Of a stretch of 64,000 nucleotides of DNA, positions 1 to 32,099 are shown one piece after another. The stretch comes from Eledone cirrhosa (Eukaryota), in the NCBI GenBank assembly GCA_964016885.1, contig OZ024743.1, positions 322,462,001-322,526,000 on the forward strand, given 5' to 3'. The notes under the pieces are model-generated. The model saw only the letters and a program-made list of their open reading frames with translations, made no database searches and was not told the DNA's origin. How positions within the stretch are numbered: the first letter of the stretch is position 1; each line of letters begins with the position of its first letter. The position numbers were made by a program, and so were the translations under genes.

Positions 1-3000
1 GGAGCTACAGTATAACACATTTACCCACCTCGATCTGGGACCTTAACTTGGAGCTACAGTAAATCACACTTACCCACCTCGATCTGTGTCCTTAACTTGG
101 AACTACAGTAAAACACACATACCCAACCTAGATCTGGGTCTTTAACTTGGATCTACAGTAAAACATATTTACCCATCCCGATCTGGGTCCTTAACTTGGA
201 GCTACAGTAAAAGACACTTACCCACATTGATCTATGTCCTTAACTTGGAGCTGCAGTAAAAGACACTTACCCACCTTTTCTGGGTCCTTAACTTGGAGCT
301 ACAGTAAAACACACTTACCCACTTTGATCTGGGTCCTTAAATTGGAGCTACAGTTAAACACACATAACCAACCTAGATCTGGGTCCATAACTTGGAGCTA
401 CAGTAAAACATACTTACCCACCTCGATCTGGGTCCTTAACTTGGAGCTAAAGTAAAACATACTTACCCACCTTGATGTGGGTCCTTAACTTGGAGTTACA
501 GTAAAAGACACTTACCCACCTCGATCTGGGTCCTTAACTTGGAGCTACAGTAAAACACACTTACCCACTTTGATCTGGGTCCTTAAATTGGAGCTACAGT
601 TAAACACATATAACCAACCTAGATCTGGGTCCATAACTTGGAGATACAGTAAAAGATACTTATCCACCTCGATCTGGGTACTTAACTTAGAGCTACTGCA
701 GAAGACACTTACCCACCTCGATCTGGGTCCTTAACTTGGAGTTACAGTAAAAGACACTTACCCACCTCGATCTGGGTCCTTAACTTGGAGCTACAGTAGA
801 ACATACTTACCCAACCTAGATCTGGGTCCTTAACTTGGAGCTACAGTAAATCATACTTACCCACTTTGATCTGGGTCCTTAACTTGCAGCTACAGAAAAA
901 CACACTTACCCACCTAGATCTGGGTCTTTAACTTGGAGGTACGATAAAACACACTTACCCACCTCGATCTGGTTCCTTAAATTGGAACTACAGTAAAACA
1001 TATTACCCACCTCGATCTGGGTCCTTAACTTGGAGCTACAGTAAAAGACACTTACCCACCTCGATCTGGGTCCTTAACTTGGAGCTAAAGTAAAACATAC
1101 TTACCCACCTTGATGTGGGTCCTTAACTTGGAGCTACAGTAAAAGACACTTATCCACCTCGATCTGGGACCTTAATTTGGAGCTACAGTAAAACACACTT
1201 ACTCACCTCGATCTGGGTCATTAACTTGGAGCTAGAGTAAAAGACACTTACCCACCTCGATCTGGGTCCTTAACTCGGAGCTACTGTAAAACACGCTTAC
1301 CCACCTGATCTGCGTGCTTAACTTAGAGCCACAGTAAAAGACACTTACCCACCTCGATCTGGGTCCTTAACTTGGAGATACAATAAAACACACATACCCA
1401 CATTGATCTGGGTCCTTAACTTGGAGCTACACTAAAAGACACTTACCCACACTGATCTGTGTCCTTAACTTGGAGCTGCAGTAAAAGACACTTACCCACC
1501 TCGTCTGGGTACTTAACTTGGAGCTACAGTAAAACACACTTACCCACATCGATCTGGGTCCTTAACTTGGAGCTACAGTTAAACACACTTACCCACCTTG
1601 ATTTGGGTCCTTAACTTGGAGATACAGTAAAAGATACTTATCCACCTCGATCTGGGTACTTAACTTGGAGCTACTGCAAAAGACACTTACCCACATCGAT
1701 CTGGGTTTAACTTGGAGCTACAGTAAAACATACTTACCCACCTCGATCTCTGTCCTTAACTTGGCGCTACAGTAAAACACACTTACCCACCTCGATCTGC
1801 GTGCTTAACTTAGAGCTACAGTAAAAGGCACTTACCCACCTCGATCTGGGTCCTTAACTTGGAGCTACAATAAAACACACTTACCCACATTGATCTGGGT
1901 CCTTAACTTGGAGCTACAGTAAAAGAAACTTACCCCCACCGATCTGGGTCCTTAACTTGGAGCTAGAGTAAAACACACTTACCCACCTCAATCTGCGTGC
2001 TTAACTTAGAGCTACAGTAAAAGACACTTACCCACCTTGATCTGGGTCCTTAACTTGGAGCTACAATAAAACACACTTACCCACCTCTATCTGGGTCCTT
2101 AACTTGGAGCTACAGTAAAAGATACTTATCCACCTCGATCTGGGTACTTAACTTGGAGCTACTGCAAAAGACACTTACCCACCTCGATCTGAATACTTAA
2201 CTTGGAGCTACAGTAAAAGACACTTATCCACCTGATCTGGGTTTAACTTGGATGTACAGTAAATCACACTTACCCACCTCCATCTGGTTCCTTAACTTGG
2301 AGCTACAGTAAAAAACACTTACCAACCTGATCTGGGTCCTTAACTTGGAGCTACAGTTAAACACACATAACCAACCTATATCTGGGTCCATAACTTGGAG
2401 CTACAGTAAAAGATACTTACCCACCTCGATTTGGGTCCTTAACTTGGAGCTACAGTAAAAGACACTTACCCACCCCGATCTCTGTCCTTAACTTGGAGCT
2501 ACAGTAAAACACACTTACCCACCTCCATCTGGGTTCTTAACTTGGAGCTACAGAAAAAGACACTTACCCACCTTGATCTTGGTTTACCTTTGAGCTACAG
2601 TAAAACATACTTACCCACCTCTATCTGGGTCCTTAACTTGGAGCTACAGTAAAACACACTTACCCACCTCGATCTGCGTCCTTAACTTAGAGCTACAGTA
2701 AAAGACGCTTACCCACCTCTATCTGGGTCCTTAACTTTGAGCTACGATAAAACACACTTACCCACCGTGATATGGGTCCTTAACTTGGAACTACAGTAAA
2801 ACATATTACCCACCTCGATCTGGGTCCTTAACTTGGAGCTACAGTAAAAGACACTTACCCACCTTGATCTGGGTCATTGACTTGGAGTTACAATAAAAGA
2901 CACTTAATCAACTCGATCTGGGTCCTTTACTTGGAGCTACAGTAAAACACACTTACCCACCTTGATCTGCGTCCTTAACTTAGAGCTACAGTAAAAGACA

Positions 3001-6000
3001 GTTACCCACCTTGTCTGGGTCCTTAACTTGGAGCTACAGTAAAACACACTTACCCACCTGATCTGGATCCTTAACTTGGAGCTACAGTTAAACACACATA
3101 CCCAACCTAGATCTGGGTCCATAGTTTGGAGCTACAGTAAAACATACTTACCCACCTTGATCTGTGTCCTTATCTTGGTGCTACAGTAAAAGATATTTAC
3201 CCACCTCGATCTGCGTCCTTAAATTGGAGCTACAGTAAAAGACACTTACCCACCTCGATCTCTGTCCTTAACTTGGAGCTACAGTAAAAGACACTTACCC
3301 ACCTTGATCTGGGTCCTTAACTTGGAGCTACAGTAAAACACACTTACCCACGTCGACCTGGTACTTAACTTGGAGCTACAATAAAACGCGCTTACCCACC
3401 TCGATCTGCGTCCTTAACTTAGAGCTACAGTAAAAGACAGTTACCCACCTCGATCTGGGTCCTTAACTTGGAGCTACAATAAAACACACTTACCCACATT
3501 GATCTGGGTCCTTAACTTGGAGATACAGTAAAAGACACTTACCCCCATCGATCTGGGTCCTTAACTTGGAGCTACAGTAAAACACACTTACCCAAGCGAT
3601 TTGGGTCCTTAAATTGGAGCTACAGTATAACACATTTACCCACCTCGATCTGGGTCCTTAACTTGGAGCTACAGTAAATGACACTTACCCACCTTATCTG
3701 GGTCCTTAACTTGGAGCTACGGTAAAACACACTTACCCACCTCGATCTGGGACCTTAACTTGGAGCTACAGTAAATCACACTTACCCACCTCGATCTGGG
3801 TCCTTAACTTGGAACTACAGTAAAACACACATACCCAACCTAGATCTGGGTCCTTAACTTGGATCTACAGTAAAACATATTTACCCATCCCGATCTGGGT
3901 CCTTAACTTGGAGCTACAGTAAAAGACACTTACCCACATTGATCTATGTCCTTAACTTGGAGCTGCAGTAAAAGACACTTACCCACCTTTTCTGGGTCCT
4001 TAACTTGGAGCTACAGTAAAACACACTTACCCACTTTGATCTGGGTCCTTAACTTGGAGCTACAGTTAAACACACATAACCAACCTAGATCTGGGTCCAT
4101 AACTTGGAGTTACAGTAAAACATACTTACCCACCTCGATCTGGGTCCTTAACTTGGAGATACGGTAAAAGATACTTATCCACCTCGATCTGGGTACTTAA
4201 CTTAGAGCTACTGCAAAAGACACTTACCCACCTCTATCTGGGTGCTTAACTTGGAGCTACAGTAAAAGACACTTACCCACCTCGATCTGGGTCCTTAACT
4301 TGGAGCTACAGTAGAACACACATACCCAACCTAGATCTGGGTCTTTAACTTGGAACTACTTTAAAACACACTTACCCACCTCGATCTGGTTCCTTAAATT
4401 GGAACTACAGTAAAACATACTTACCCACCTTGATGTGGGTCCTTAACTTGGAGCTACAGTAAAAGACACTTATCCACCTCGATCCGGGACCTTAATTTGG
4501 AGCTACAGTAAAAGACACTTACCCACCTCGATCTGGGTCCTTAACTTGGCCCTACAGTAAAACACACTTACCCACCTGATCTGCGTGCTTAACTTAGAGC
4601 TACAGTAAAAGACATTTACCCACCTCGACTGGGTCCTTAACTTGGCGCTACAGTAAAACACACTTACCCACCTTGATCTGCGTGCTTAACTTAGAGCTAC
4701 AGTAAAAGACACTTACCCACCTTGATCTGGGTCCTTAACTTGGAGCTACAATAAAACACACTTACCCACCCTGATCTGGGTCCTTAACTTGGAGCTACAG
4801 TAAAAGATACTTATCCACCTCGATCTGGGTACTTAACTTGGAGCTACTGCAAAAGACACTTACCCACCTCGATCTGGATACTTAACTTGGAGCTACAGTA
4901 AAAGACACTTACCCACCTGATCTGGGTTTAACTTGGATGTACAGTAAAACACACTTACCCACCTCTATCTGGTTCCTTAACTTGGAGCTACAGTAAAACA
5001 CACATAACCAACCTATATCTGGGTCCATAACTTGGAGCTACAGTAAAACATACATACCCACCTCGATCTGGGTCCTTAACTTGGAGCTACAGTAAAAGAT
5101 ACTTACCCACCTCGATCTGGGTCCTTAACTTGGAGCTACAGTAAAAGACACTTACCCACATCGATCTCTGTCCTTAACTTGGAGCTACAGTAAAACACAC
5201 TTACCCACCTCATCTGGGTCCTTAACTTGGAGCTACAGAAAAAGACACTTACCCACCTTGATCTGGGTTTAACTTTGAGCTACAGTAAAACATACTTACC
5301 CACCTCTATCTGGGTCCTTAACTTGGAGCTACAGTAAAACACACTTACCCACCTCGATCTGCGTCCTTAAATTAGAGCTACAGTAAAAGACGCTTACCCA
5401 CCTCTATCTGGGTCCTTAACTTGGAGCGACGATAAAACACACTTACCCACCGTGATATGGGTCCTTAACTTGGAACTACAGTAAAATATATTACCCACCT
5501 CGATCTGGGTCCTTAACTTGCAGCTACAGTAAAACACACTTACCCACATGATCTGGGTCCTTAACTTGGAGCTACAGTTAAACACACATACCCAACCTAG
5601 ATCTGGGTCCATAACTTGGAGCTACAGTAAAACATACTTACCCACCTTGATCTGTGTCCTTATCTTGGTGCTACAGTAAAAGATATTTACCCACCTCGAT
5701 CTGCGTCCTTAAATTGGAGCTACAGTAAAAGACACTTACCCACCTCGATCACTGTCCTTAACTTGGAGCTACAGTAAAAGACACTTACCCACTTTGATCT
5801 GGGTCCTTAACTTGGAGCTGCAGTAAAACACACTTACCCACGTCGACCTGGTACTTAACTTGGAGCTACAATAAAACGCACTTACCCACCTCGATCTGCG
5901 TCCTTAACTTAGAGCTACAGTAAAAGACAGTTACCCACCTCGATCTGGGTCCTTAACTTGGAACTACAATAAAACACACTTACCCACATTGATCTGGGTC

Positions 6001-9000
6001 CTTAACTTGGAGATACAGTAAAAGACACTTACCCCCATCGATCTGGGTCCTTAACTTGGAGCTACAGTAAAACACACTTACCCAAGCGATTTGGGTCCTT
6101 AAATTGCAGCTACAGTATAACACATTTACCCACCTCGATCTGGGGCCTTAACTTGGAGCTACAGTAAATGACACTTACCCATCTTATTTGGGTCCTTAAC
6201 TTGGAGCTACGGTAAAACACACTTACCCACCTGATCTGGGACCTTAACTTGGAGCTACAGTAAATCACACTTACCCACCTCGATCTGTGTCCTTAACTTG
6301 GAACTACAGTAAAACACACATACCCAACCTAGATCTGGGTCCTTAACTTGGATCTACAGTAAAACATATTTACCCATCCCGATCTGGGTCCTTAACTTGG
6401 AGCTACAGTAAAAGACACTTACCCACATTGATCTATGTCCTTAACTTGGAGCTGCAGTAAAAGACACTTACCCACCTTTTCTGGGTCCTTAACTTGGAGC
6501 TACAGTAAAACACACTTACCCACTTTGATCTGGGTCCTTAACTTGGAGCTACAGTTAAACACACATAACCAACCTAGATATGGGTCCATAACTTGGAGCT
6601 ACAGTAAAACATACTTACCCACCTCGATCTGGGTCCTTAACTTGGAGATACAGTAAAAGATACTTATCCACCTCGATCTGGGTACTTAACTTAGAGCTAC
6701 TGCAAAAGACACTTACCCACCTCGATCTGGGTCCTTAACTTGGAGTTACAGTAAAAGACACTTACCCACCTCGATCTGGGTCCTTAACTTGGAGCTACAG
6801 TAGAACATACTTACCCAACCTAGATCTGGGTCCTTAACTTGGAGCTACAGTAAATCATACTTACCCACTTTGATCTGGGTCCTTAACTTGCAGCTACAGA
6901 AAAACACACTTACCCACCTAGATCTGGGTCTTTAACTTGGAGGTACGATAAAACACACTTACCCACCTCGATCTGGTTCCTTAAATTGGAACTACAGTAA
7001 AACATATTACCCACCTCGATCTGGGTCCTTAACTTGGAGCTACAGTAAAAGACACTTACCCACCTCGATCTGGGTCCTTAACTTGGAGCTAAAGTAAAAC
7101 ATACTTACCCACCTTGATGTGGGTCCTTAACTTGGAGCTACAGTAAAAGACACTTATCCACCTCGATCTGGGACCTTAATTTGGAGCTACAGTAAAACAC
7201 ACTTACTCACCTCGATCTGGGTCATTAACTTGGAGCTAGAGTAAAAGACACTTACCCACCTCGATCTGGGTCCTTAACTCGGAGCTACTGTAAAACACGC
7301 CTACCCACCTGATCTGCGTGCTTAACTTAGAGCCACAGTAAAAGACACTTACCCACCTCGATCTGGGTCCTTAACTTGGAGATACAATAAAACACACATA
7401 CCCACATTGATCTGGGTCCTTAACTTGGAGCTACAGTAAAAGACACTTACCCACACTGATCTGTGTCCTTAACTTGGAGCTGCAGTAAAAGACACTTACC
7501 CACCTCGTCTGGGTACTTAACTTGGAGCTACAGTAAAACACACTTACCCACATCGATCTGGGTCCTTAACTTGGAGATACAGTTAAACACACATATCCAA
7601 CCTAGATCTGTGTCCATAACATGGAGCTACAGTAAAACATACTTACCCACCTTGATTTGGGTCCTTAACTTGGAGATACAGTAAAAGATACTTATCCACC
7701 TCGATCTGGGTACTTAACTTGGAGCTACTGCAAAAGACACTTACCCACATCGATCTGGGTTTAACTTGGAGCTACAGTAAAACATACTTACCCACCTCGA
7801 TCTCTGTCCTTAACTTGGCGCTACAGTAAAACACACTTACCCACCTCGATCTGCGTGCTTAACTTAGAGCTACAGTAAAAGGCACTTACCCACCTCGATC
7901 TGGGTCCTTAACTTGGAGCTACAATAAAACACACTTACGCACATTGATCTGGGTCCTTAACTTGGAGCTACAGTAAAAGAAACTTACCCCCACCGATCTG
8001 GGTCCTTAACTTGGAGCTACAGTAAAACACACTTACCCACCTTGATCTGGGTCCTAAAATTGGAGCTACAGCAAAAGACACTTACCCACCTCGATCTGGG
8101 TCCTTGACTCGGAGCTACAGTAAAACACACTTACTCACCTCGATCTGGGTCCTTAACTTGGAGCTACAGTAAAAGACACTTACCCACCTTGACTGGGTCC
8201 TTAACTTGGCGCTACAGTAAAACACACTTACCCATCTTGATCTGCGTGCTTAACTTAGAGCTACAGTAAAAGATACTTACCCACCTTGATCTGGGTCCTT
8301 AACTTGGAGCTACAATAAAACACACTTACCCACCTCTATCTGGGTCCTTAACTTGGAGCTACAGTAAAAGATACTTATCCACCTCGATCTGGGTACTTAA
8401 CTTGGAGCTACTGCAAAAGACACTTACCCACCTCGATCTGGATACTTAACTTGGAGCTACAGTAAAAGACACTTATCCACCTGATCTGGGTTTAACTTGG
8501 ATGTACAGTAAATCACACTTACCCACCTCCATCTGGTTCCTTAACTTGGAGCTACAGTAAAAAACACTTACCAACCTGATCTGTGTCCTTAACTTGGAGC
8601 TACAGTTAAACACACATAACCAACCTATATCTGGGTCCATAACTTGGAGCTACAGTAAAACATACATACCCACCTCGATCTGGGTCCTTAACTTGGAGCT
8701 ACAGTAAAAGATACTTACCCACCTCGATTTGGGTCCTTAACTTGGAGCTACAGTAAAAGACACTTACCCACCTCGATCTCTGTCCTTAACTTGGAGCTAC
8801 AGTAAAACACACTTACCCACCTCCATCTGGGTTCTTAACTTGGAGCTACAGAAAAAGACACTTACCCACCTTGATCTTGGTTTACCTTTGAGCTACAGTA
8901 AAACATACTTACCCACCTCTATCTGGGTCCTTAACTTGGAGCTACAGTAAAACACACTTACCCACCTCGATCTGCGTCCTTAACTTAGAGCTACAGTAAA

Positions 9001-12000: not shown

Positions 12001-15000
12001 CTGGGTCCTTAACTCGGAGCTACAGTAAAAGACATTTACCCACCTCGATCTGTGTCCTTAACTTGGCGCTACAGTAAAACACACTTACCCACCTTGATCT
12101 GCGTGCTTAACTTAGAGCTACAGTAAAAGACACTTACCCACCTAGATCTGGGTCCTTAACTTGGAGCTACAGTAAAACATACTTACCCACCTCGATCTGG
12201 GTTCTTAACTTGGAGCTACAGTAAAACACACTTACCCACCTCGATCTGGGTCCTTAACTTGGAGCTACAGTAAAACACACTTACCCACCTCGATCTGGGT
12301 CCTTAACTTGGAGCTACAGTAAAACACACTTACCCACCTCGATCTGGGTACTTTACTTGGAGCTACAATAAAAGACACTTACCCACCTCGATCTGGAACC
12401 TTAACTTTTAGCTACAGTAAAACACACTCACCCACCTGTATCTGGGTCCTTAACTTGGAGATACAATAAAACACATTTACCCACATTGATCTGGGTCCTT
12501 AACTTGGAGCTACAGTTAAAGACACTTACCCACCTCGATCTGGGTCCTTAACTTAGAGCTACAGTAAAACACACTTACCCACCTTGATCTGGGTCCTTAA
12601 CTTGGAGCTACAGTATAACACACTTACCCACCTCGATCTGCGTCCTTAACTTGGAGCTACAGTAAAACACCCTTACCCACCTCGATCTGGGTCCTTAACT
12701 TGGAGCTACAGTAAAACATACTTACCCACCTGATCTGGGTCCTTAAATTGGAGCTACAGTAAATGACACTTACCCGCCCCTTGATCTGGGTCCTTAACTT
12801 GGAGCTAGAGTAAAACACATTTACCCACCTAGATCTGGGTCCTTAACTTGGAGCTACAGTAAAACATACTCACCCACCTCGATCTGGGTCCTTAACTTGG
12901 AGCTTCAGTAAAAGACACTTACCCACCTCTATCTGGGTCCTTAACTTTCAGCTACAGTAAAACATACTTACCCACCTGATCTGGGTCCTTAAATTGGAGC
13001 TACAGTAAAAGACACTTACCCACCTCGATCTCTGTCCTTAACTTGGAGCTACATTAAAACACACTTACCCACCTCGATTTGGGTCCTTAACTTGGAGCTA
13101 CAGTAAAACACACTTACCCACCTCGATCTTGGTACTTAACTTGGAGCTACAGTAAAACATACTTACCCACCTCTATCTGGGTCCTTAACTTGGAGCTACT
13201 GTAAAACACACTTACCCACACCGATCTGCGTCCTTAACTTAGAGCTACAGTAAAAGACACTTACCCACCTCGATCTGGGTCCTTAACTTGGAGCTACAAT
13301 AAAACACACTTACTCACATTGATCTGGGTCCTTAACTTGGAGATACAGTAAAAGACACTTACCCCCATCGATCTGGGTCCTTAACTTGGAGCTACAGTAA
13401 ATGACACTTACCCACCTCATCTGGGTCCTTAACTTGGAGCTACAGTAAAACACACTTACCAACCTAGATCTGGGACCTTAAATTGGAGCTACAGTAAATC
13501 CCACTTACCCCCCTCATCTGGGTCCTTAACTTGGAGCTACAGTAAAACACACATACCCAACCTAGATCTGGGTCCTTAACGTGGATCTACCGTACAACAT
13601 ATTTACCCACCCTGATCTGGGTCCTTAACTTTGAGCTACAGTAAAAGACACTTACCCACCTCGATATGGGTCCTTGACTTGGAGCTACAGTAAAAGACAC
13701 TTACCCATCTCGATCTGGGTCCTTAACTTGGAGCTAGAGTAAAACACTTACCCATCTCTATCTGGGTCCTTAACTTGGAGCTACAATAAAACACACTTAC
13801 CCACCTCAATCTGGTTCCTTAACTTCGAGCGACAGTAAAACACACTTACCCACCTTGATCTGGGTCCTTAACTTGGAGCTACAGTAAAACACACTTACCC
13901 ACCTCGATCTGGGTCCTTAACTTGGAGCTACAGTAATACACACATACCCAACCTAGATCTGGGTCCTTAACTTGGAACTACAGTAAAACATACTTACCCA
14001 CCTCGATCTGTGTCCTTAACTTGGAGCTGCATTAAAAGACACTTACCCACCTTTTCTGGGTCCTTAACTTGGAGCTACAGTAAAACACACTTACCCACCT
14101 CGATCTGTGTCCTTAACTTGGAGCTACAGTTAAACACACATAACCAACCTAGATCTGGGTCCATAACTTGGAGCTACAGTAAAACATACTTACCAACCTC
14201 TATCTGGGTCCTTAACTTGGCGCTACAGTAAAACACACTTACCCACCTCCATCTGCGTGCTTAACTTAGAGCTACAGTAAAAGACACTTACCCACCTCGA
14301 TCTGGGTCCTTAACTTGGAGCTACAATAAAACACACTTACCCACCTCAATCTGGTTCCTTAACTTGGAGCTACAGTAAAACACACTTACCCACCTCGATC
14401 TGGGTCCTTAACTTGGAGCTACAGTAAAACACACTTACCCACCTCGATCTGGGTACTTTACTTGGAGCTACAATAAAAGACACTTACCCACCTTGATCTG
14501 GAACCTTAACTTTTAGCTACAGTAAAACACACTCACCCACCTGTATCTGGGTCCTTAACTTGGAGATACAATAAAACACATTTACCCACATTGATCTGGG
14601 TCCTTAACTTGGAGCTACAGTTAAAGACACTTACCCACCTCGATCTGGGTCCTTAACTTAGAGCTACAGTAAAACACACTTACCCACCTTGATCTGGGTC
14701 CTTAACTTGGAGCTACAGTATAACACACTTACCCACCTCGATCTGCGTCCTTAACTTGGAGCTACAGTAAAACACCCTTACCCACCTCGATCTGGGTCCT
14801 TAACTTGGAGCTACAGTAAAACATACTTACCCACCTGATCTGGGTCCTTAAATTGGAGCTACAGTAAATGACACTTACCCGCCCCTTGATCTGGGTCCTT
14901 AACTTGGAGCTAGAGTAAAACACATTTACCCACCTAGATCTGGGTCCTTAACTTGGAGCTACAGTAAAACATACTCACCCACCTCGATCTGGGTCCTTAA

Positions 15001-18000
15001 CTTGGAGCTTCAGTAAAAGACACTTACCCACCTCTATCTGGGTCCTTAACTTTGAGCTACAGTAAAACATACTTACCCACCTGATCTGGGTCCTTAAATT
15101 GGAGCTACAGTAAAAGACACTTACCCACCTCGATCTCTGTCCTTAACTTGGAGCTACATTAAAACACACTTACCCACCTCGATTTGGGTCCTTAACTTGG
15201 AGCTACAGTAAAACACACTTACCCACCTCGATCTTGGTACTTAACTTGGAGCTACAGTAAAACATACTTACCCACCTCTATCTGGGTCCTTAACTTGGAG
15301 CTACTGTAAAACACACTTACCCACACCGATCTGCGTCCTTAACTTAGAGCTACAGTAAAAGACACTTACCCACCTCGATCTGGGTCCTTAACTTGGAGCT
15401 ACAATAAAACACACTTACTCACATTGATCTGGGTCCTTAACTTGGAGATACAGTAAAAGACACTTACCCCCATCGATCTGGGTCCTTAACTTGGAGCTAC
15501 AGTAAATGACACTTACCCACCTCATCTGGGTCCTTAACTTGGAGCTACAGTAAAACACACTTACCAACCTAGATCTGGGACCTTAAATTGGAGCTACAGT
15601 AAATCCCACTTACCCCCCTCATCTGGGTCCTTAACTTGGAGCTACAGTAAAACACACATACCCAACCTAGATCTGGGTCCTTAACGTGGATCTACCGTAC
15701 AACATATTTACCCACCCTGATCTGGGTCCTTAACTTTGAGCTACAGTAAAAGACACTTACCCACCTCGATATGGGTCCTTGACTTGGAGCTACAGTAAAA
15801 GACACTTACCCATCTCGATCTGGGTCCTTAACTTGGAGCTAGAGTAAAACACTTACCCATCTCTATCTGGGTCCTTAACTTGGAGCTACAATAAAACACA
15901 CTTACCCACCTCAATCTGGTTCCTTAACTTCGAGCGACAGTAAAACACACTTACCCACCTTGATCTGGGTCCTTAACTTGGAGCTACAGTAAAACACACT
16001 TACCCACCTCGATCTGGGTCCTTAACTTGGAGCTACAGTAATACACACATACCCAACCTAGATCTGGGTCCTTAACTTGGAACTACAGTAAAACATACTT
16101 ACCCACCTCGATCTGTGTCCTTAACTTGGAGCTGCATTAAAAGACACTTACCCACCTTTTCTGGGTCCTTAACTTGGAGCTACAGTAAAACACACTTACC
16201 CACCTCGATCTGTGTCCTTAACTTGGAGCTACAGTTAAACACACATAACCAACCTAGATCTGGGTCCATAACTTGGAGCTACAGTAAAACATACTTACCA
16301 ACCTCTATCTGGGTCCTTAACTTGGCGCTACAGTAAAACACACTTACCCACCTCCATCTGCGTGCTTAACTTAGAGCTACAGTAAAAGACACTTACCCAC
16401 CTCGATCTGGGTCCTTAACTTGGAGCTACAATAAAACACACTTACCCACCTCAATCTGGTTCCTTAACTTGGAGCTACAGTAAAACACACTTACCCACCT
16501 CGATCTGGGTCCTTAACTCGGAGCTACAGTAAAATACACTTACCCACCTCGATCTGGGTACCTAACTTGGAGCTACAGTAAAACATACTTACCCACCTCG
16601 ATCTGGGTTCTTAACTTGGAGCTACAGTAAAACACACTTAGCCACCTCGATCTGGGTCCTTAACTTGGAGCTACAGTAAAACACACTTACTCACCTCGAT
16701 CTGGGTCCTTAACTTGGAGCTACAGTAAAAGTCACTTACACACCTTGATCTGGGTCCTTAACTTGGCGCTACAGTAAAACACACTTACCCACCTCGATCT
16801 GCGTGCTTAACTTAGAGCTACAGTAAAAGACACTTACCCACATTGATCTGGGTCCTTAACTTGGAGCTACAATAAAACACACTTACCCAGATTGATCTGG
16901 GTCCTTAACTTGGAGCTACAGTAAAAGACACTTACCCACATCGATCTGGGTTTAACTTGGAGTTACAGTAAAATATAGTTACCTACCTCTATCTGGGTCC
17001 TTAACTTGGAGCTACAGTAAAACACACTTACCCACCTCGATCTGCGTTCTTAACTTAGAGCTACAGTAAAAGAGACTTACCCACCTTGATCTGGGTCCTT
17101 AACTTGGAGCTACAATAAAACACACTTACCCAGATTGATCTGGGTCCTTAACTTGGAGCTACAGTAAAAGACACTTACCCACATCGATCTGGGTCCTTAA
17201 CTTGGAGCTACAGTAAAACATATTTACCCACCTTGATCTGGGTCATTAACTTGGAGCTACAGTATAACACATTTACCCACCTCGATCTGGGTCCTTAACT
17301 TGGAGCTACAGTAAAACACACATACCCAAACTAGATCTGGGCCTTAACTTGGAGCTACAGTAAAACATACTTACCCACCTCGATCTGGGTTCTTAACTTG
17401 GAGCTACAGTAAAACACACTTACCCACCTCGATCTGGGTCCTTAACTTGGAGCTACAGTAAAACACACTTACCCACCTCGATCTGGGTCCTTAACTTGGA
17501 GCTACAGTAAAACACACTTACCCACCTCGATCTGGGTACTTTACTTGGAGCTACAATAAAAGACACTTACCCACCTCGATCTGGAACCTTAACTTTTAGC
17601 TACAGTAAAAGACACTCACCCACCTGTATCTGGGTCCTTAACTTGGAGCTACAATAAAACACATTTACCCACATTGATCTGGGTCCTTAACTTGGAGCTA
17701 CAGTTAAAGACACTTACCCACCTCTATCTGGGTCCTTAACTTAGAGCTACAGTAAAACGCACTTACCCACCTTGATCTGGGTACTTAACTTGGAGATACA
17801 GTAAAAGACACTTACCCCCATCGATCTGGGTCCTTAACTTGGAGCTACAGTAAATGACACTTACCCACCTCATCTGGGTCCTTAACTTGGAGCTACAGTA
17901 AAACACACTTACCAACCTAGATCTGGGACCTTAAATTGGAGCTACAGTAAATCCCACTTACCCCCCTCATCTGGGTCCTTAACTTGGAGCTACAGTAAAA

Positions 18001-21000
18001 CACACATACCCAACCTAGATCTGGGTCCTTAACGTGGATCTACCGTACAACATATTTACCCACCCTGATCTGGGTCCTTAACTTTGAGCTACAGTAAAAG
18101 ACACTTACCCACCTCGATATGGGTCCTTGACTTGGAGCTACAGTAAAAGACACTTACCCATCTTGATCTGGGTCCTTAACTTGGAGCTAGAGTAAAACAC
18201 TTACCCATCTCTATCTGGGTCCTTAACTTGGAGCTACAATAAAACACACTTACCCACCTCAATCTGGTTCCTTAACTTCGAGCGACAGTAAAACATACTT
18301 ACCCACCTCGATCTGTGTCCTTAACTTGGAGCTGCATTAAAAGACACTTACCCACCTTTTCTGGGTCCTTAACTTGGAGCTACAGTAAAACACACTTACC
18401 CACCTCGATCTGTGTCCTTAACTTGGAGCTACAGTTAAACACACATAACCAACCTAGATCTGGGTCCATAACTTGGAGCTACAGTAAAACATACTTACCA
18501 ACCTCTATCTGGGTCCTTAACTTGGCGCTACAGTAAAACACACTTACCCACCTCCATCTGCGTGCTTAACTTAGAGCTACAGTAAAAGACACTTACCCAC
18601 CTCGATCTGGGTCCTTAACTTGGAGCTACAATAAAACACACTTACCCACCTCAATCTGGTTCCTTAACTTGGAGCTACAGTAAAACACACTTACCCACCT
18701 CGATCTGGGTCCTTAACTCGGAGCTACAGTAAAATACACTTACCCACCTCGATCTGGGTACCTAACTTGGAGCTACAGTAAAACATACTTACCCACCTCG
18801 ATCTGGGTTCTTAACTTGGAGCTACAGTAAAACACACTTAGCCACCTCGATCTGGGTCCTTAACTTGGAGCTACAGTAAAACACACTTACTCACCTCGAT
18901 CTGGGTCCTTAACTTGGAGCTACAGTAAAAGTCACTTACACACCTTGATCTGGGTCCTTAACTTGGCGCTACAGTAAAACACACTTACCCACCTCGATCT
19001 GCGTGCTTAACTTAGAGCTACAGTAAAAGACACTTACCCACATTGATCTGGGTCCTTAACTTGGAGCTACAATAAAACACACTTACCCAGATTGATCTGG
19101 GTCCTTAACTTGGAGCTACAGTAAAAGACACTTACCCACATCGATCTGGGTTTAACTTGGAGTTACAGTAAAATATAGTTACCTACCTCTATCTGGGTCC
19201 TTAACTTGGAGCTACAGTAAAACACACTTACCCACCTCGATCTGCGTTCTTAACTTAGAGCTACAGTAAAAGAGACTTACCCACCTTGATCTGGGTCCTT
19301 AACTTGGAGCTACAATAAAACACACTTACCCAGATTGATCTGGGTCCTTAACTTGGAGCTACAGTAAAAGACACTTACCCACATCGATCTGGGTCCTTAA
19401 CTTGGAGCTACAGTAAAACATATTTACCCACCTTGATCTGGGTCATTAACTTGGAGCTACAGTATAACACATTTACCCACCTCGATCTGGGTCCTTAACT
19501 TGGAGCTACAGTAAAACACACATACCCAAACTAGATCTGGGCCTTAACTTGGAGCTACAGTAAAACATACTTACCCACCTCGATCTGGGTTCTTAACTTG
19601 GAGCTACAGTAAAACACACTTACCCACCTCGATCTGGGTCCTTAACTTGGAGCTACAGTAAAACACACTTACCCACCTCGATCTGGGTCCTTAACTTGGA
19701 GCTACAGTAAAACACACTTACCCACCTCGATCTGGGTACTTTACTTGGAGCTACAATAAAAGACACTTACCCACCTCGATCTGGAACCTTAACTTTTAGC
19801 TACAGTAAAAGACACTCACCCACCTGTATCTGGGTCCTTAACTTGGAGCTACAATAAAACACATTTACCCACATTGATCTGGGTCCTTAACTTGGAGCTA
19901 CAGTTAAAGACACTTACCCACCTCTATCTGGGTCCTTAACTTAGAGCTACAGTAAAACGCACTTACCCACCTTGATCTGGGTACTTAACTTGGAGCTACA
20001 GTATAACACACTTACCCACCTCGATCTGGGTCCTTAACTTGGAGCTACAGTAAAACACTCTTACCCACCTCGATCTGGGTCCTTAACTTGAAGCTACAGT
20101 AAATGACACTTACCCGCCCCTTGATCTGGGTCCTTAACTTGGAGCTACAGTAAAACACATTTACCCACCTAGATCTGGGTCCTTAACTTGGAGCTACAGT
20201 AAAACATACTCACCCACCTCGATCTGGGTCCTTAACTTGGAGCTTCAGTAAAAGACACTTACCCACCTCTATCTGGGTCCTTAACTTTGAGCTACAGTAA
20301 AACATACTTACCCACCTCAATCTGGGTCCTTAACTTGGAGCTACAATAAAACACACTTACCCACATTGATCTGGGTCCTTAACTTGGAGATACAGTAAAA
20401 GACACTTACCCCCATCGATCTGGGTCCTTAACTTGGAGCTACAGTAAATGACACTTACCCACCTCATCTGGGTCCTTAACTTGGAGCTACAGTAAAACAC
20501 ACTTACCAACCTAGATCTGGGACCTTAAATTGGAGCTACAGTAAATCCCACTTACCCACCTCATCCGGGTCCTTAACTTGGAGCTACAGTAAAACACACA
20601 TATCCAACCTAGATCTGGGTCCTTAACTTGGATCCACCGTAAAACATATTTACCCACCCTGATCTGGGTCCTTAACTTTGAGCTACAGTAAAAGACACTT
20701 ACCCACCTCGATATGGGTCCTTGTATTGGAGCTACAGTAAAAGACACTTACCCATCTCGATCTGGGTCCTTAACTTGGAGCTAGAGTAAAACACTTACCC
20801 ATCTCTATCTGGGTCCTTAACTTGGAGCTACAATAAAACACACTTACCCACCTCAATCTGGTTCCTTAACTTCGAGCGACAGTAAAAGACACTTACCCAC
20901 CTTGATCTGGGTCCTTAACTTGGAGCTACAGTAAAACACACTTACCCACCTCGATCTGGGTCCTTAACTTGGATCTACAGTAATACACATATACCCAACC

Positions 21001-24000
21001 TAGATCTGGGTCCTTAACTTGGAACTACAGTAAAACATACTTACCCACCTCGATCTGTGTCCTTAACTTGGAGCTGCATTAAAAGACACTTACCCACCTT
21101 TTCTGGGTCCTTAACTTGGAGCTACAGTAAAACACACTTACCCACCTCGATCTGTGTCCTTAACTTGGAGCTACCGTAAAACATACTTACCCACCTCGAT
21201 CTGGGTCCTTTACTTGGAGCTACAGTAAATGACACTTACCCACCTCGATCTGGGTCCTTAACTTGCAGCTACAGTAAAACACACTTACCCACCTAGATCT
21301 GGGCCTTTAACTTGGAGCTACGATAAAACACACTTACCCACCTCGATCTGGGTCCTTAACTTGGAACTACAGTAAAACATATTACCCACCTCGATCTGGG
21401 TCCTTAACTTGGAGCTACAGTAAAAGAAACTTACCCCCATGATCTGGGTCCTTAACTTGGAGCTACAGTAAAATACACTTACCCACCTTGATCTGGGTCC
21501 TTAACTTGGAGCTACAGCAAAAGACACTTACCCACCTAGTTCTTGGTCCTTAACTCGGAGCTACAGTAAAAGACACTTACCCACCTTGATCTGGGTCCTT
21601 AACTTGGAGCTACAGTAAAAGACACTTACCCACCTCGATCTGGGTCCTTAACTTGGCGCTACAGTAAAACACACTTACCCACCTTGATCTGCGTGCTTAA
21701 CTTAGAGCTACAGTAAAAGACACTTACCCACCTCGATCTGGGTCCTTAACTTGGAGCTACAATAAAACACACTTACCCACCTCGATCTGGGTCCTTAACT
21801 TGGAGCTACAGTAAATGATACTTATCCACCTCGATCTGGGTACTTAACTTGGAGCTACTGCAAAAGACACTTACCCACCTTGATCTGGGTCCTTAACTTG
21901 CAGTTACAGTAAAAGACACTTACCCACCTCAATCTCTGTCCTTAACTTGGAGCTACAGTAAAACACACTTACCAACCTCGATCTGGGTCCTTAACTTGGA
22001 GCTACAGTAAAACACACATACCCACCTCGATCTGGGTACTTAACTTGGAGCTACAGTAAAAGACACTTACCCACCTCGATCTGGGTTTAACTTGGAGCTA
22101 CAGTAAAACATACTTACCAACCTCTATCTGGGTCCTTAACTTGGCGCTACAGTAAAACACACTTACCCACCTCGATCTGCGTGCTTAACTTAGAGCTACA
22201 GTAAAAGACACTTACCCACCTCGATCTGGGTCCTTAACTTGGACCTACAATAAAACACACTTACCCACCTCAATCTGGTTCCTTAACTTGGAGCTACAGT
22301 AAAACACACTTACCCACCTCGATCTGGGTCCTTAACTCCGATCTACAGTAAAATACACTTACCCACCTCGATCTGGGTACCTAACTTGGTGCTACAGTAA
22401 AAGACACTTACCCACCTCGATCTGGGTTTAACTTGGAGCTACAGTAAAACATACTTACCCACCTCTATCTGGGTCCTTAATTTGGAGCTACAGTAAAAGA
22501 CACTTACCCACCTCGATCTCCGTCCTTAACTTAGAGCTACAGTAAAAGACACTTACCCACCTTGATCTGGGTCCTGAACTTGGAGCTACAATAAAACACA
22601 CTTACCAACCTCAATCTGGTTCCTTAACTTCGAGCGACAGTAAAACACACTTACCCACCTTGATCTGGGTCCTTAACTTTGAGCTACAGTAAAACACACT
22701 TACCCACCTCGATCTGGGTCCTTAACTTGGAGCTACAGTAATACACACATACCCAACCTAGATCTGGGTCCTTAACTTGGAACTACAGTAAAACATACTT
22801 ACCCACCTTGATCTGGGTCCTTAACTTGGAGCTACAGTAAAAGACACTTACCCACCTCGATCTGTGTCCTTAACTTGGAGCTGCAGTAAAAGACACTTAC
22901 CCACCTTTTCTGGGTCCTTAACTTGGAGCTACAGTAAAAGACACTTACCCACCTCGATCTGTGTCCTTAACTTGGAGCTACAGTTAAACACACATAACCA
23001 ACCTAGATCTGGTTCCATAACTTGGAGCTACAGTAAAACATACTTACCCACCTGATCTGGGTCCTTAACTTGGAGATACAGTAAAAGATACTTATCCACC
23101 TCGATCTGGGTCCTTAACTTGGAGCTACAGTAGAACACACATACCCAACCTAGATCTGGGTCCTTAACTTGGGGCTACAGTAAAACATACTTACCCACCT
23201 CGCACTGGGTCCTTTACTTGGAGCTACAGTAAATGACACTTACCCACCTCGATCTGGGTCCTTAACTTGCAGCTACAGTAAAACACACTTACCCACCTAG
23301 ATCTGGACCTTTAACTTGGAGCTACGATAAAACACACTTACCCACCTTGATCTGGGTCCTTAACTTGGAACTACAGTAAAACATATTACCCACCTCGATC
23401 TGGGTCCTTAACTTGGAGCTACAGTAAAACACACTTACCCACCTTGATCTGGGTCCTTAACTTGGAGCTACAGCAAAAGACACTTACCCACCTCGTTCTT
23501 GGTCCTTAACTCGGAGCTACAGTAAAACACACTTACCCACCTTGATCTGGGTCCTTAACTTGTAGCTACAGTAAAAGACACTTACCCACCTCGATCTGGG
23601 TCCTTAACTTGGCGCTACAGTAAAACACACTTACCCACCTTGATCTGCGTGCTTAACTTAGAGCTACAGTAAAAGACACTTACCCACCTCGATCTGGGTC
23701 CTTAACTTGGAGCTACAATAAAACACACTTACCCACCTCGATCTGGGTCCTTAACTTGGAGCTACAGTAAAAGATACTTATCCACCTCGATCTGGGTACT
23801 TAACTTGGATCTACTGCAAAAGACACTTACCCACCTCGATCTGGGTCCTTAACTTGGAGCTACAATAAAACACACTTACCCACCTCGATCTGTGTCCTTA
23901 ACTTGGAGCTACAGTAAAAGATACTTATCCACCTCGATCTGGGTACTTAACTTGGAGCTACTGCAAAAGACACTTACCCACCTTGATCTGGGTCCTTAAC

Positions 24001-27000
24001 TTGGAGTTACAGTAAAAGACATTTACCCACCTCTATCTCTGTCCTTAACTTGGAGCTACAGTAAAACACACTTACCCACCTCGATCTGGGTCCTTAACTT
24101 GGAGCTACAGTAAAACACACATACCCACCTCGATCTGGGTACTTAACTTGGAGCTACAGTAAAAGACACTTACCCACCTCGATCTGGGTTTAACTTGGAG
24201 CTACAGTAAAACATACTTACCAACCTCTATCTGGGTCCTTAACTTGGCGCTACAGTAAAAGACACTTACCCACCTCGATCTGGGTCCTTAACTTGGAGCT
24301 ACAGTAAAACACACTTACCCACCTCGATCTGGGTCCTTAACTCGGAGCTACAGTAAAATACACTTACCCACCTCGATCTGGGTACTTAACTTGGAGCTAC
24401 AGTAAAACATACTTACCCACCTCGATCTGGGTTCTTAACTCGGAGCTACAGTAAAACACACTTTGCCACCTCGATCTGGGTCCTTAACTTGGAGCTACAG
24501 TAAAACACACTTACCCACCTCGATCTAGGTCCTTAACTTGGAGCTACAGTAAAACACACTTACTCACCTCGATCTGGGTCCTTAACTTGGAGCTACAGTA
24601 AAAGTCACTTACACACCTTGATCTGGGTCCTTAACTTGGCGCTACAGTAAAACACACTTACCCACCTCGATCTGGGTCCTTAACTTGGAGGTACAATAAA
24701 ACACACTTACCCACCTTGATCTGGGTCCTTAACATGGAGCTACAGTAAAACACACTTACACACCTCGATCTGGGTCCTTAACTTGGAGCTACAATAAAAC
24801 ACACTTACCCACCTCAATCTGGTTCCTTAACTTGGAGCTACAGTAAAACACACTTACCCACCTCGATCTGGGTCCTTAACTCCGATCTACAGTAAAATAC
24901 ACTTACCCACCTCGATCTGGGTACCTAACTTGGTGCTACAGTAAAAGACACTTACCCACCTTGATCTGGGTTTAACTTGGAGCTACAGTAAAACATACTT
25001 ACCCACCTCTATCTGGGTCCTTAATTTGGAGCTACAGTAAAAGACACTTACCCACCTCGATCTCCGTCCTTAACTTAGAGCTACAGTAAAAGACACTTAC
25101 CCACCTTGATCTGGGTCCTGAACTTGGAGCTACAATAAAACACACTTACCAACCTCAATCTGGTTCCTTAACTTCGAGCGACAGTAAAACACACTTACCC
25201 ACCTTGATCTGGGTCCTTAACTTTGAGCTACAGTAAAACACACTTACCCACCTCGATCTGGGTCCTTAACTTGGAGCTACAGTAATACACACATACCCAA
25301 CCTAGATCTGGGTCCTTAACTTGGAACTACAGTAAAACATACTTACCCACCTTGATCTGGGTCCTTAACTTGGAGCTACAGTAAAAGACACTTACCCACC
25401 TCGATCTGTGTCCTTAAGTTGGAGCTGCAGTAAAAGACACTTACCCACCTTTTCTGGGTCCTTAACTTGGAGCTACAGTAAAAGACACTTACCCACCTCG
25501 ATCTGTGTCCTTAACTTGGAGCTACAGTTAAACACACATAACCAACCTAGATCTGGTTCCATAACTTGGAGCTACAGTAAAACATACTTACCCACCTGAT
25601 CTGGGTCCTTAACTTGGAGATACAGTAAAAGATACTTATCCACCTCGATCTGGGTCCTTAACTTGGAGCTACAGTAGAACACACATACCCAACCTAGATC
25701 TGGGTCCTTAACTTGGGGCTACAGTAAAACATACTTACCCACCTCGCACTGGGTCCTTTACTTGGAGCTACAGTAAATGACACTTACCCACCTCGATCTG
25801 GGTCCTTAACTTGCAGCTACAGTAAAACACACTTACCCACCTAGATCTGGACCTTTAACTTGGAGCTACGATAAAACACACTTACCCACCTTGATCTGGG
25901 TCCTTAACTTGGAACTACAGTAAAACATATTACCCACCTCGATCTGGGTCCTTAACTTGGAGCTACAGTAAAAGAAACTTACCCCCATGATCTGGGTCCT
26001 TAACTTGGAGCTACAGTAAAACACACTTACCCACCTTGATCTGGGTCCTTAACTTGGAGCTACAGCAAAAGACACTTACCCACCTCGTTCTTGGTCCTTA
26101 ACTCGGAGCTACAGTAAAACACACTTACCCACCTTGATCTGGGTCCTTAACTTGTAGCTACAGTAAAAGACACTTACCCACCTCGATCTGGGTCCTTAAC
26201 TTGGCGCTACAGTAAAACACACTTACCCACCTTGATCTGCGTGCTTAACTTAGAGCTACAGTAAAAGACACTTACCCACCTCGATCTGGGTCCTTAACTT
26301 GGAGCTACAATAAAACACACTTACCCACCTCGATCTGGGTCCTTAACTTGGAGCTACAGTAAAAGATACTTATCCACCTCGATCTGGGTACTTAACTTGG
26401 ATCTACTGCAAAAGACACTTACCCACCTCGATCTGGGTCCTTAACTTGGAGCTACAATAAAACACACTTACCCACCTCGATCTGTGTCCTTAACTTGGAG
26501 CTACAGTAAAAGATACTTAGCCACCTCGATCTGGGTACTTAACTTGGAGCTACTGCAAAAGACACTTACCCACCTTGATCTGGGTCCTTAACTTGGAGTT
26601 ACAGTAAAAGACATTTACCCACCTCTATCTCTGTCCTTAACTTGGAGCTACAGTAAAACACACTTACCCACCTCGATCTGGGTCCTTAACTTGGAGCTAC
26701 AGTAAAACACACATACCCACCTCGATCTGGGTACTTAACTTGGAGCTACAGTAAAAGACACTTACCCACCTTGATCTGGGTTTAACTTGGAGCTACAGTA
26801 AAACATACTTACCAACCTCTATCTGGGTCCTTAACTTGGCGCTACAGTAAAAGACACTTACCCACCTCGATCTGGGTCCTTAACTTGGAGCTACAGTAAA
26901 ACACACTTACCCACCTCGATCTGGGTCCTTAACTCGGAGCTACAGTAAAATACACTTACCCACCTCGATCTGGGTACTTAACTTGGAGCTACAGTAAAAC

Positions 27001-28367
27001 ATACTTACCCACCTCGATCTGGGTTCTTAACTCGGAGCTACAGTAAAACACACTTTGCCACCTCGATCTGGGTCCTTAACTTGGAGCTACAGTAAAACAC
27101 ACTTACCCACCTCGATCTAGGTCCTTAACTTGGAGCTACAGTAAAACACACTTACTCACCTCGATCTGGGTCCTTAACTTGGAGCTACAGTAAAAGTCAC
27201 TTACACACCTTGATCTGGGTCCTTAACTTGGCGCTACAGTAAAACACACTTACCCACCTCGATCTGCGTGCTTAACTTAGAGCTACAGTAAATTGATCTG
27301 GGTCCTTAACTTGGAGCTACAATAAAACACACTTACCCAGTTTGATCTGGGTCCTTAACTTGGAGCTACAGTAAAAGACACTTACCCACATCGATCTGAG
27401 TTTAACTTGGAGTTACAGTAAAACATACTTACCCACCTCTATCTGGGTCCTTAACTTGGAGCTACAGTAAAACACACTTACCCACCTCGATCTGCGTTCT
27501 TAACCTAGAGCTACAGTAAAAGACACTTATCCACCTTGATCTGGGTCCTTAACTTGGAGCTACAATAAAACACACTTACCCAGATTGATCTGGGTCCTTA
27601 ACTTGGAGCTACAGTAAAAGACACTTACCCACATCGATCTGGGTCCTTAACTTGGAGCTACAGTAAATCCCACTTACCCACCTTGATCTGGGTCCTTAAC
27701 TTGGAGCTACAGTATAACACATTTACCCACCTCGATCTGGGTCCTTAACTTGGAGCTACAATAAAACACATTTACCCACATTGATCTGGGTCCTTAACTT
27801 GGAGCTACAGTTAAAGACACTTACCCACCTCGATCTGGGTCCTTAACTTGGAGCTACAGTAAAACACACTTACCCACCTTGATCTGGGTCCTTAACTTGG
27901 AGCTACAGTATAACACACTTACCCACCTCGATCTGGGTCCTTAACTTGGAGCTACAGTAAAACACCCTTACCCACCTCGATCTGGGTCCTTAACTTGGAG
28001 CTACAGTAAATGACACTTACCCCCCCTTGATCTGGGTCCTTAACTTGGAACTACAGTAAAACACATTTACCCACCTAGATCTGGGTCCTTAACTTGGAGC
28101 TACAGTAAAACATACTCACCCACCTCGATCTGGGTCCTTAACTTGGAGCTTCAGTAAAAGACACTTACCCACCTCTATCTGGGTCCTTAACTTTGAGCTA
28201 CAGTAAAACATACTTACCCACCTCGATCTGGGTCCTTACATTGGAGCTTCAGTAAAAGACACTTACCCACCTCTATCTGGGTCCTTAACTTTGAGCTACA
28301 GTAAAACATACTTACCCACCTTGATCTGGCTCCTTAACTTGGAGCTACAGTAAAAGACACTTACCCA
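1..28367. repeat. 49-bp tandem satellite array (about 580 monomers, open at the left edge) with higher-order repeats
   Basis: Consensus GGAGCTACAGTAAAA(C/G)ACACTTACCCACCTCGATCTGGGTCCTTAACTT recurs every 49 nt (starts at 1, 50, 99...). Monomers are directly adjacent, with point variants and occasional short deletions. The array stops abruptly after TTACCCA at 28367. Confidence 0.99.
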
Positions 28368-28452
28368 AGAAACCACACTGTGCGATAAAACATAGAACCA
28401 ATGTTTTCTGGGTAAAATTCGATCGACATCAGTCGTATATAGAGAGAAATAT
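28365..28452 (-). other. Candidate 88-nt host exon whose splice donor is the first satellite monomer
   Basis: Minus strand reads tttgtttgtgtgtgtatggtAG|ATATTTCTCTC...GGTTTCTTGG|GTAAGT. It is unique sequence open in two frames (e.g. YFSLYTTDVDRILPRKHWFYVLSHSVVSW). No homology recognised. Confidence 0.3.
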
Positions 28453-29082: not shown

Positions 29083-29215
29083 CCGATGGGCTGAACGAGT
29101 GTGACTTTTTAGTCCAGCCAGCGACTTGAAAACTCTGGTACAAACACTACACTTGTGACAATTATTGACACATATTGCTGGCACCATGGTACCATGTGAC
29201 GACAAGTGCAAAGAG
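29083..29215 (-). mobile_element. 3' end fragment of an RTE-type LINE ORF (C-terminal C2H2 finger)
   Basis: Minus translation [23 protein letters not shown] matches the CxxC..F.S..GL.SH.R end typical of RTE-clade ORFs and abuts a (TA)n tract. Confidence 0.5.
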
Positions 29216-31020: not shown

Positions 31021-31142
31021 CACATTAAAATATAAATTCAAGACGAAAGAAAATATATTATAACAGGGGCTGTGGAACAGCCCTGTTCCACAGCCCCTGT
31101 TATAATATATTTTCTTTCGTCTTGAATTTATATTTTAATGTG
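31021..31142. repeat. Perfect palindrome, 60-bp arms with a 2-nt spacer
   Basis: cacattaaaa...gtggaacag CC ctgttccac...ttttaatgtg. Confidence 0.9.
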
Positions 31143-31548
31143 AAATATTTGTGTAATTAAATATTGTATATATTATTTGTATATATATTTTCATTGTGTA
31201 AGAATTATAAACGATTTGTAATGTTAGTTATAGAATGACTGGATACGTAATTAAAAACTCATAAAACAGAACACGTGTATTACACCGGTGGTAAGAAACT
31301 CTCTGGAGAGCTGAACAGCGAGTCTTCAGAGAAGAAACCCCCTTCAAGCAAGTTTCAGCCCTTAACTCCTTTAAGTCCCATAGTTAGAATACATTTTGGA
31401 AGCATCAGAACTAAAATTCTCTTCGACAACATGAAACCACAACAAACCATATAACGTCTTTTTCATTCTGTCCACCGGGACCACAAGTCGGACTAACCCT
31501 TAAACTGTGTTCATCAGTAGAGCGTCGGACATCCTGCTCCGCGACATA

Positions 31549-31822
31549 GAGTTACGGCCCTTTGCGTTCTGATTTCAAATCCCGCCGAGGTTAGCTTTGT
31601 CTTTCATCCTTGTGGGGTCGGTAAAATAAAACACCAGGTTAGCATTGGAGTCGATTTAATCGACTTTCCCCTCCCCGACAGACGCAAAGAGTTACGGCCC
31701 TTGCCATTCTGAGTTCAAATCCCGCTGAGGTTAACTTTGCCTTTTATCCTTACGGGGTCGATAATATAAAGTACCAGTAATACACTGGTAATTGCTGGCC
31801 TTGTGCCAAAAGTAGAAACAAT
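31549..31822 (+). mobile_element. Two tandem partial copies of a tRNA-derived cephalopod-type SINE
   Basis: B-box-like GAGTTCAAATCC followed by ctttgccttttatccttacggggtcgata and the 3' end gctggccttgtgccaaaagtagaaacaat. Same family as 33526-33715. Confidence 0.8.
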
Positions 31823-32099
31823 TATTTTACTACATCACCCAACACGTTTTCCTCGTGATCATCCGGGTCAATGCCTTCTCCATCCTGCCCACCGGGACCA
31901 CGTGGCGGACTGACCCTTAAACAGTGAGTAGTAAAGTACAGTTCGCACACAGTTTTTGAGTTGTCAGTTATGTGAACATTTTTTTAATATATCATGTAAA
32001 TACAATTTAATAGAAAAAGAAAAAAATTAGATTGATAAGAAAGAATGGAATGTAAAATAGGAAAATATTTTTTAAAAAAACGGAAAAGGAAGGGAAAGG

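Follow-up and report, generated by a model that had tools for sequence, protein, structure and literature searches.

The question raised by this locus is whether a very long satellite array whose unit contains a splice-donor word began at a real exon-intron junction, or whether the word is a coincidence in an ordinary tandem repeat. The array lies in a stretch of 64,000 nt of the Eledone cirrhosa genome (assembly GCA_964016885.1, contig OZ024743.1, positions 322,462,001 to 322,526,000 of the forward strand), which we refer to as the window. It has a sharp end and nested block duplications, and its donor word is no slower or faster to mutate than positions elsewhere in the unit that carry the same bases. 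We consider it moderately probable that the locus is a neutrally expanding 49-bp satellite in which the donor word is coincidental and has no splicing role. Such an array would have grown by neutral unequal exchange, with blocks of about 20-45 monomers copied per event, and would have carried the donor word along as a passenger. The 88 nt beside it, which a first-pass annotation of the window had proposed as an exon, would not be one, and the internal GT sites would never be chosen because no exon would be defined in front of them. In a search of the open-licence literature, supplements excluded, neither this satellite nor any donor-built satellite that serves as a U1 sink was found described. 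The features discussed below are listed in Table 1.

Table 1. Positions of the array, its boundary features, the candidate exons and the most recent duplications in the window.
Feature	Positions	Strand	Remarks
Satellite array	1-28367	-	581 49-bp monomers; 580 are full, with 288 distinct sequences; runs past base 1
First donor-like site, TGG/GTAAGT	28359-28367	-	Candidate exon ends at 28365; G+1 is 28364
88-nt candidate exon (first-pass annotation)	28365-28452	-	Two open frames; TG-repeat-like acceptor tract; no credible homologue
Alternative 43-nt candidate exon	28365-28407	-	Behind ttttacccag; all three frames open
13-nt candidate exon	starts 28377	-	Three open frames
Predicted hairpin	28355-28425	-	First donor pairs with the acceptor at 28407
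Last U12-type 3'-end-like motif	28331-28350	+	TCCTTAACT at 28331-28339; AC ends at 28348, AG at 28350
Rival candidate exon, 61 nt	28351-28411	+	Ends TGG/GTAAAA; one open frame
Recent block duplication	12190-16497		45 monomers, 16497-14295 vs 14392-12190; 0.13 differences per monomer
Recent block duplication	16106-19969		34 identical monomers, 19969-18306 vs 17769-16106

Tandem Repeats Finder placed 580.6 copies of the unit in one array at positions 1-28367, and wrap-around alignment resolved them into head-to-tail monomers. Exactly 49 bp is the length of 453 monomers, and mean identity to the modal sequence is 0.93. Read from the minus strand, that sequence is TGGGTAAGTGTGTTTTACTGTAGCTCCAAGTTAAGGACCCAGATCGAGG, which has 14 exact copies. 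Because the array passes the left edge of the window, its 28.4 kb are a minimum length. The minus-strand unit reads TGG/GTAAGT (the slash marks the predicted splice point), followed by a T-rich run and by an AG that ends 20 nt from the GT. The right boundary is sharp and falls 3 nt upstream of the GT of a minus-strand GG/GTAAGT; in register, 1 of 20 bases beyond it matches the monomer. The first-pass annotation had described head-to-tail monomers with a consensus minus-strand donor and an AG at this distance, a plus-strand variant, ATACTTACC, and a loss of similarity 3 nt past the donor, and each of these observations was confirmed (the variant occurs 66 times in the array).

Several simple accounts of the unit and its flank were set aside. 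A decayed monomer in the flank was rejected, since shuffled sequences align equally well (412 of 1000 and 207 of 1000), and the first five monomers of the array differ from the majority sequence by 2-4 bases, compared with an array mean of 3.4. No copy of the monomer was found at positions 28368-64000 (nhmmer, best E 7.1), and derivation from another repeat in the window was rejected on this result. A coding satellite was rejected because a trimer of the monomer contains stops on both strands. Rfam at its gathering threshold and ARAGORN returned 0 matches over the whole window, which therefore shows neither a U1 gene nor a tRNA nor any other known RNA family.

The internal structure of the array records a history of block copying. 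We found 65 duplicated runs of at least four monomers, 4 to 45 monomers in length, the largest of which comprise 45, 34, 30, 26, 24 and 24 units and differ between copies by 0 to 0.75 bases per monomer. The lags between copies are irregular (43, 45, 51-53, 76, 123 and 127 monomers). There is no fixed higher-order period in the array: identity is flat at 0.875-0.889 at any lag, and a regular higher-order repeat was rejected for this reason. Nested duplications of differing ages are what unequal exchange would be expected to produce, and, together with the 288 distinct monomers, they make it unlikely that the whole array is an assembly artefact. A local mis-assembly could, however, account for the 34 identical monomers at 19969-16106.

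The donor word is less frequent than the first-pass annotation had estimated. Its figure of about 580 sites is the number of monomers; the exact GG/GTAAGT occurs 406 times in the array and GTAAGT 436 times, GTAAGT with AG at +19/+20 accounts for 401 cases, and of the 580 full monomers 530 retain the GT and 50 have lost it. The annotation had also asked whether the hexamer mutates less than the rest of the unit, and it does not. Its variation is 0.051 compared with 0.061 at base-matched positions (P 0.48 for all monomers, 0.56 over the 288 distinct monomers and 0.67 by parsimony on the monomer tree), which places it 18th among the 49 hexamers of the unit, or 30th by parsimony. When five sets of positions (+1/+2, +1/+2/+5, +1 to +6, -3 to +6, and the AG) were compared with base-matched controls by three measures, none of the 15 tests revealed excess conservation (P 0.14-0.67), though with 49 positions and related copies such tests detect only strong effects. 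Variation in the monomer goes with the base at each position (0.028 for A, 0.033 for T, 0.095 for C and 0.122 for G). G+1 varies in 8.6% of monomers and the median at G positions is 7.2%. The donors show no sign of purging in the array copies either. In the copies the donor word is a passenger under either origin. Since all 580 copies descend from one unit, the chance of its appearance concerns a single 49-mer rather than 580 events: in 100,000 shuffled monomers, counting either strand, GGTAAGT was found in 0.8%, GTAAGT in 3% and a member of the strong-donor class in 10%.

These results bear directly on the proposal that the array is a functional minus-strand splicing element that would serve as a U1 sink, offer alternative donors in a ladder, or provide a scaffold for recursive splicing or telescripting. 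The supply of sites is large, with 436 GTAAGT words in 28 kb and a second donor-like site, [ACG]AG/GTGGGT, 4 nt upstream of the main donor in 360 monomers (it is lacking at the first donor). The internal donors are also not more paired than the first one: in local folding the mean unpaired fraction was 0.35 over 71 sampled internal donors and 0.20 at the first donor, and silencing of the internal donors by hairpins was rejected accordingly. There is precedent for an effect of such repeats, in that the length of the repeat in ABCA7 is described as altering exon skipping and expression (PMC5954066). In telescripting, cleavage that would come too early at poly(A) sites is suppressed (PMC9909926), and this role finds no support here because the donor strand of the array contains 0 AATAAA and 0 ATTAAA, the two hexamers counted, for U1 to suppress; the 52 AATAAA in the array are on the plus strand and stem from a single-base variant of the monomer. 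A recursive role meets a similar difficulty, as the array contains 0 YAG/GTRAG and 29 nt separate each AG from the next GT; 86 YAG/GT variants occur, and the sequence upstream of them is monomer sequence with no pyrimidine tract. A GT-AG unit of 20 nt lacks the length that an intron needs for splicing, and a U1 sink would require abundant array RNA. With none of the 15 conservation tests positive, and with known repeats of this kind using their first donors, we regard a functional role as highly improbable.

Repeats that begin at a splice donor are known from other genes, and the closest in scale is the variable number tandem repeat of ABCA7 intron 18. Its unit starts at the donor, and the described alleles range from 12 units to about 427, the longest measuring 10,678 bp (PMC5954066, PMC13747324). 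The reported transcripts include canonical splicing and the retention of one unit, with one extra donor in use, and longer repeats lead to more skipping of the next exon (PMC5954066). The Eledone array resembles it in having a donor-starting tandem unit in hundreds of copies that vary slightly. It differs in that the ABCA7 exon and junctions are proven, whereas here a 49-bp unit in at least 581 copies over 28.4 kb adjoins a candidate exon only. The first-pass annotation knew of no donor-containing repeat on such a scale, a statement weakened by ABCA7, where alleles with about 427 units that start at the donor span 10.7 kb; because that repeat reaches such numbers, the scale of the present array is not new in kind.

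A match in geometry is the F7 IVS7 minisatellite, in which a junction-spanning unit consists of 4 bp of exon and 33 bp of intron, and in which the downstream pseudo-donors are reported to be functional yet unused, even at a consensus value of 91 (PMC1557585). The first monomer of the Eledone array would likewise span a junction with few exonic bases (3 + 46 bp) and reiterate its donor downstream. The same source reports that two further donor sites are used in the CBS and 6-16 repeats, and includes lamin B2 and PDGF among donor-bearing repeats (PMC1557585). Unlike the present array, all of these have 5-25 copies and proven exons, and splicing in them uses no donor beyond the first or the first three. 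Two further systems invite comparison. Ratchet points juxtapose an acceptor and a donor (PMC8605326); the array is similar in being a long stretch with internal AG and GT signals, and dissimilar in their spacing. Drosophila Y-linked genes have giant introns filled with satellite DNA that is transcribed, and the portions of that account consulted here link no reiterated splice donors to them (PMC6508621).

These comparisons give substance to the possibility that the array was born at a real minus-strand exon-intron junction, where 3 nt of exon and 46 nt of intron were duplicated and then expanded neutrally. We hold this to be unlikely, though well within consideration. The first donor would then be spliced, the second or third might leak, and the rest would be silent, as in F7, CBS and ABCA7. 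A junction would place the boundary as it is placed in F7 (4 + 33 bp) and ABCA7 (the unit starts at the GT), an exon would also account for the clean end of the array and its lack of decayed monomers, the flank is unique within the window, and neutral decay of the internal donors is predicted by this origin too. What it requires is an exon, to which the following analyses turn.

Upstream of the donor there are three YAG acceptors, at distances of 13, 43 and 88 nt and with 3, 3 and 2 open frames. Their pyrimidine fractions are 0.71 at 28377, 0.59 at 28407 and 0.53 at 28452, so that the acceptor chosen in the first-pass annotation is the one with the lowest value. The AG...GT segment that it described at 28452-28365 is present with its two open frames, but its standing as an exon was not supported, as it looks no different from background and has no credible homologue. 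Of 1612 random 3' ends in the flank, 824 had a candidate exon with at least this acceptor quality and one open frame, and 105 had a candidate of 80 nt or more in which two frames are open. Comparable candidate exons accompany 17 of the 41 other GTRAGT sites in the flank, and 506 of 2992 windows of 88 nt contain two or more open frames. An exon-like look is therefore common by chance.

Homology searches did not improve the case. The two 88-nt frames matched no Pfam family and no PDB entry below E 0.14, and gave no candidate in a word-indexed search of 5.8 billion proteins (a search for longer proteins) and no usable Atlas match. One of them, DISLYIRLMSIEFYPENIGSMFYRTVWFLG, was run through a full HMMER search of 1.84 billion representatives and obtained three matches (E 5.5e-05 to 2.5e-04). 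All three are tandem-repeat proteins, and each score is the sum over 9-13 repeats of which the best single one reaches 4.7-5.7 bits. Two of the three have weak leucine-rich-repeat matches. We do not regard the three as homologues, and a leucine-rich-repeat likeness of the frame was rejected. The third minus frame, 27 residues between stops, had no match in Pfam or PDB, the two databases searched with it. No partner exon was recognised in the 35 kb upstream. Among 312 unmasked open frames of at least 38 codons between 28.3 and 64 kb there was no host-exon-like match at Pfam E 0.01, in a scan that misses short exons and also missed a 513-aa transposon protein; its matches were two reverse-transcriptase fragments, one C2H2 finger before a TA run and one weak bacterial domain. 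The finger is a single C2H2 zinc finger at 29092-29157 on the minus strand (Pfam E 3e-04), directly before a long TA run. It lies 640 nt upstream of the candidate exon on the same strand and could be a host exon; we take it to be, more probably, the 3' end of a long interspersed nuclear element (LINE).

Several considerations weigh against a coincidental donor word. The first base of the array is 3 nt ahead of a donor, the array points away from unique DNA, and a break so close to the word takes up about 5 of 49 phases in one of two orientations. By our arithmetic, pure chance would produce this for the exact word in about 4 of 10,000 array ends, and for the broad strong-donor class in about 5 of 1,000. 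Arrays born at donors are also rare, however, and in our judgement the phase of the array, taken by itself, leaves coincidence and birth at a donor nearly even. The 85 flank bases at the junction have no second copy in the window, while 32% of flank DNA does have one. The absence of conservation in the copies is uninformative about the first donor. Queries of 29-30 residues are weak, untranslated or non-coding exons would be invisible to protein searches, and one frame was used with the full HMMER library. Finally, the dismissal of the DISLYIRLMSIEFYPENIGSMFYRTVWFLG matches can be disputed: none of 200 shuffled queries reached the totals on the same three targets (132 scored), a control that is biased because the targets were chosen by the real query. 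Taking all this into account, we think it possible but doubtful that the segment beside the array is a real exon. What survives of the junction origin put forward in the first-pass annotation is the F7-like geometry and the phase of about 5 in 49; nothing establishes the exon itself as real.

The opposite strand also shows how readily this 49-mer matches splice signals. The plus-strand monomer contains TCCTTAACT, which is identical to the published branch-site consensus of U12-type introns (PMC3291851). The array has 390 copies, 361 with the AC in place and 330 with the AG, and the 35.6-kb flank has 0. The AC and AG end 11-14 nt past the two adenosines and no pyrimidine tract intervenes, in agreement with the 12-15 nt from branch to acceptor and the lack of a tract described for U12-type introns (PMC3291851). 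In 200,000 shuffled monomers, either strand counted, this motif appeared in 0.03% and GGTAAGT in 0.85%, so that it is about 27 times rarer. The array might accordingly be the amplified 3' end of a plus-strand U12-type intron, with an exon starting at 28349 or 28351 and with the minus-strand donor as the coincidence. An open frame and a TGG/GTAAAA donor do follow the last copy (Table 1). This motif, on the other hand, was found after looking at many motif types, and its conservation does not exceed that of base-matched controls (P 0.31-0.54). The RTATCCTT donor of such an intron, with its exon, would lie to the left of base 1. The frame that follows had no match in Pfam, in PDB or in an exact look-up, and a likeness to WD40 repeats was rejected after Pfam gave no match at E 10. 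Minor introns number a few hundred per genome. Because they are so rare the prior for this origin is very low, and we give it scarcely any credence. It is implausible that a minus-strand donor and a plus-strand minor acceptor both gave rise to one unit, and with the rarer motif on the opposite strand at least one of the two striking splice motifs in the monomer must be a matter of chance.

A different source for the array would be a non-autonomous rolling-circle transposon of the Helentron or HINE type, with the array as its overgrown central repeat and the unique flank as the end of the element. Oyster elements of this type regularly carry short satellite-like arrays (PMC7492417), and the array beside a short inverted-repeat flank recalls Cg_HINE and DINE-1 as they are described (PMC7492417, PMC4067079). 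The inverted repeat here is formed by the outer arms of a hairpin predicted at the junction, 13 nt long and complementary at 11 of 13 positions. The details fit poorly. The arms are separated by 29 nt and one of them extends into the array, whereas described spacings are 1-12 or 3-22 bp, no microsatellite separates hairpin and array, and the oyster arrays have at most 29 monomers (PMC7492417), so that spacing, microsatellite and array length all depart from Cg_HINE and DINE-1. The remainder of the window holds no second copy of the flank or of the monomer, and the matching subterminal repeat and palindrome expected at the far end of such an element would fall beyond the window. The hairpin itself (z about -2.3) was equalled by 10 of 150 random windows and its window was picked after it had been seen, and we rejected it as a special structure. 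The chance that the array is part of such an element appears slim.

A further comparison is with classical satellite DNA. The array shares with it short monomers that stand head to tail over tens of kilobases, about 88% pairwise identity, nested block duplications, and a setting among transposon remains and microsatellites. The sole difference shown from a classical satellite is the donor-like word at the end of the array.

The transposon remains lie in the 35.6 kb beyond the boundary. Inverted repeats of 711 bp that are 99.7% identical (39936-40645 and 42601-43311) bound a 513-aa frame at 40549-42090, which has 1751 relatives at about 40-45% identity (best 45%) and no Pfam match. The whole, at 39936-43311, is a young retroelement, presumably Penelope-like (reverse transcriptase + GIY-YIG). 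Fragments related to the ends or the coding part of it or of similar elements lie at 43736-44032, 48733-49227 and 59218-59627, each beside a TA run. A short dispersed repeat, which we assume to be akin to a cephalopod short interspersed nuclear element (SINE), has copies that are 78-93% identical at 31513-31829, 33514-33698, 45876-45986 and 60859-60950. Decayed LINE-like coding pieces are found at 35400-37200 (judged by translation only) and at 62300-64000, the latter stretch with RVT_1 matches at 63382-63693 and 63617-64000. Long near-perfect palindromes, identified by eye at 31065-31098, 39231-39400, 51800-51890, 52200-52570 and 59250-59360, could be the remains of hairpin-ended transposons or assembly fold-backs.

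The boldest combination of these elements would place a real exon end at 28365, transcribe more than 28 kb with over 400 consensus donors into a U1-loaded nascent RNA, let array length tune splicing or nuclear retention of the gene, and add an antisense transcript with about 330 exact U12 branch-plus-acceptor sites, making the locus a two-way spliceosome decoy. We rate its prospects as very slight; if it were true, this would be the largest donor-built repeat that we found reported. If the array is an ordinary satellite, as we suppose, it has little import beyond demonstrating the ease with which a 49-mer matches splice signals, one on each strand. If the exon proved real, the locus would be a natural test, in an invertebrate, of how a first donor is chosen over more than 400 competing sites spread across 28 kb. 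It exceeds the longest ABCA7 allele described (PMC5954066) about 1.4-fold in copy number and 2.7-fold in length, and would extend a known class of repeats and open no new one.

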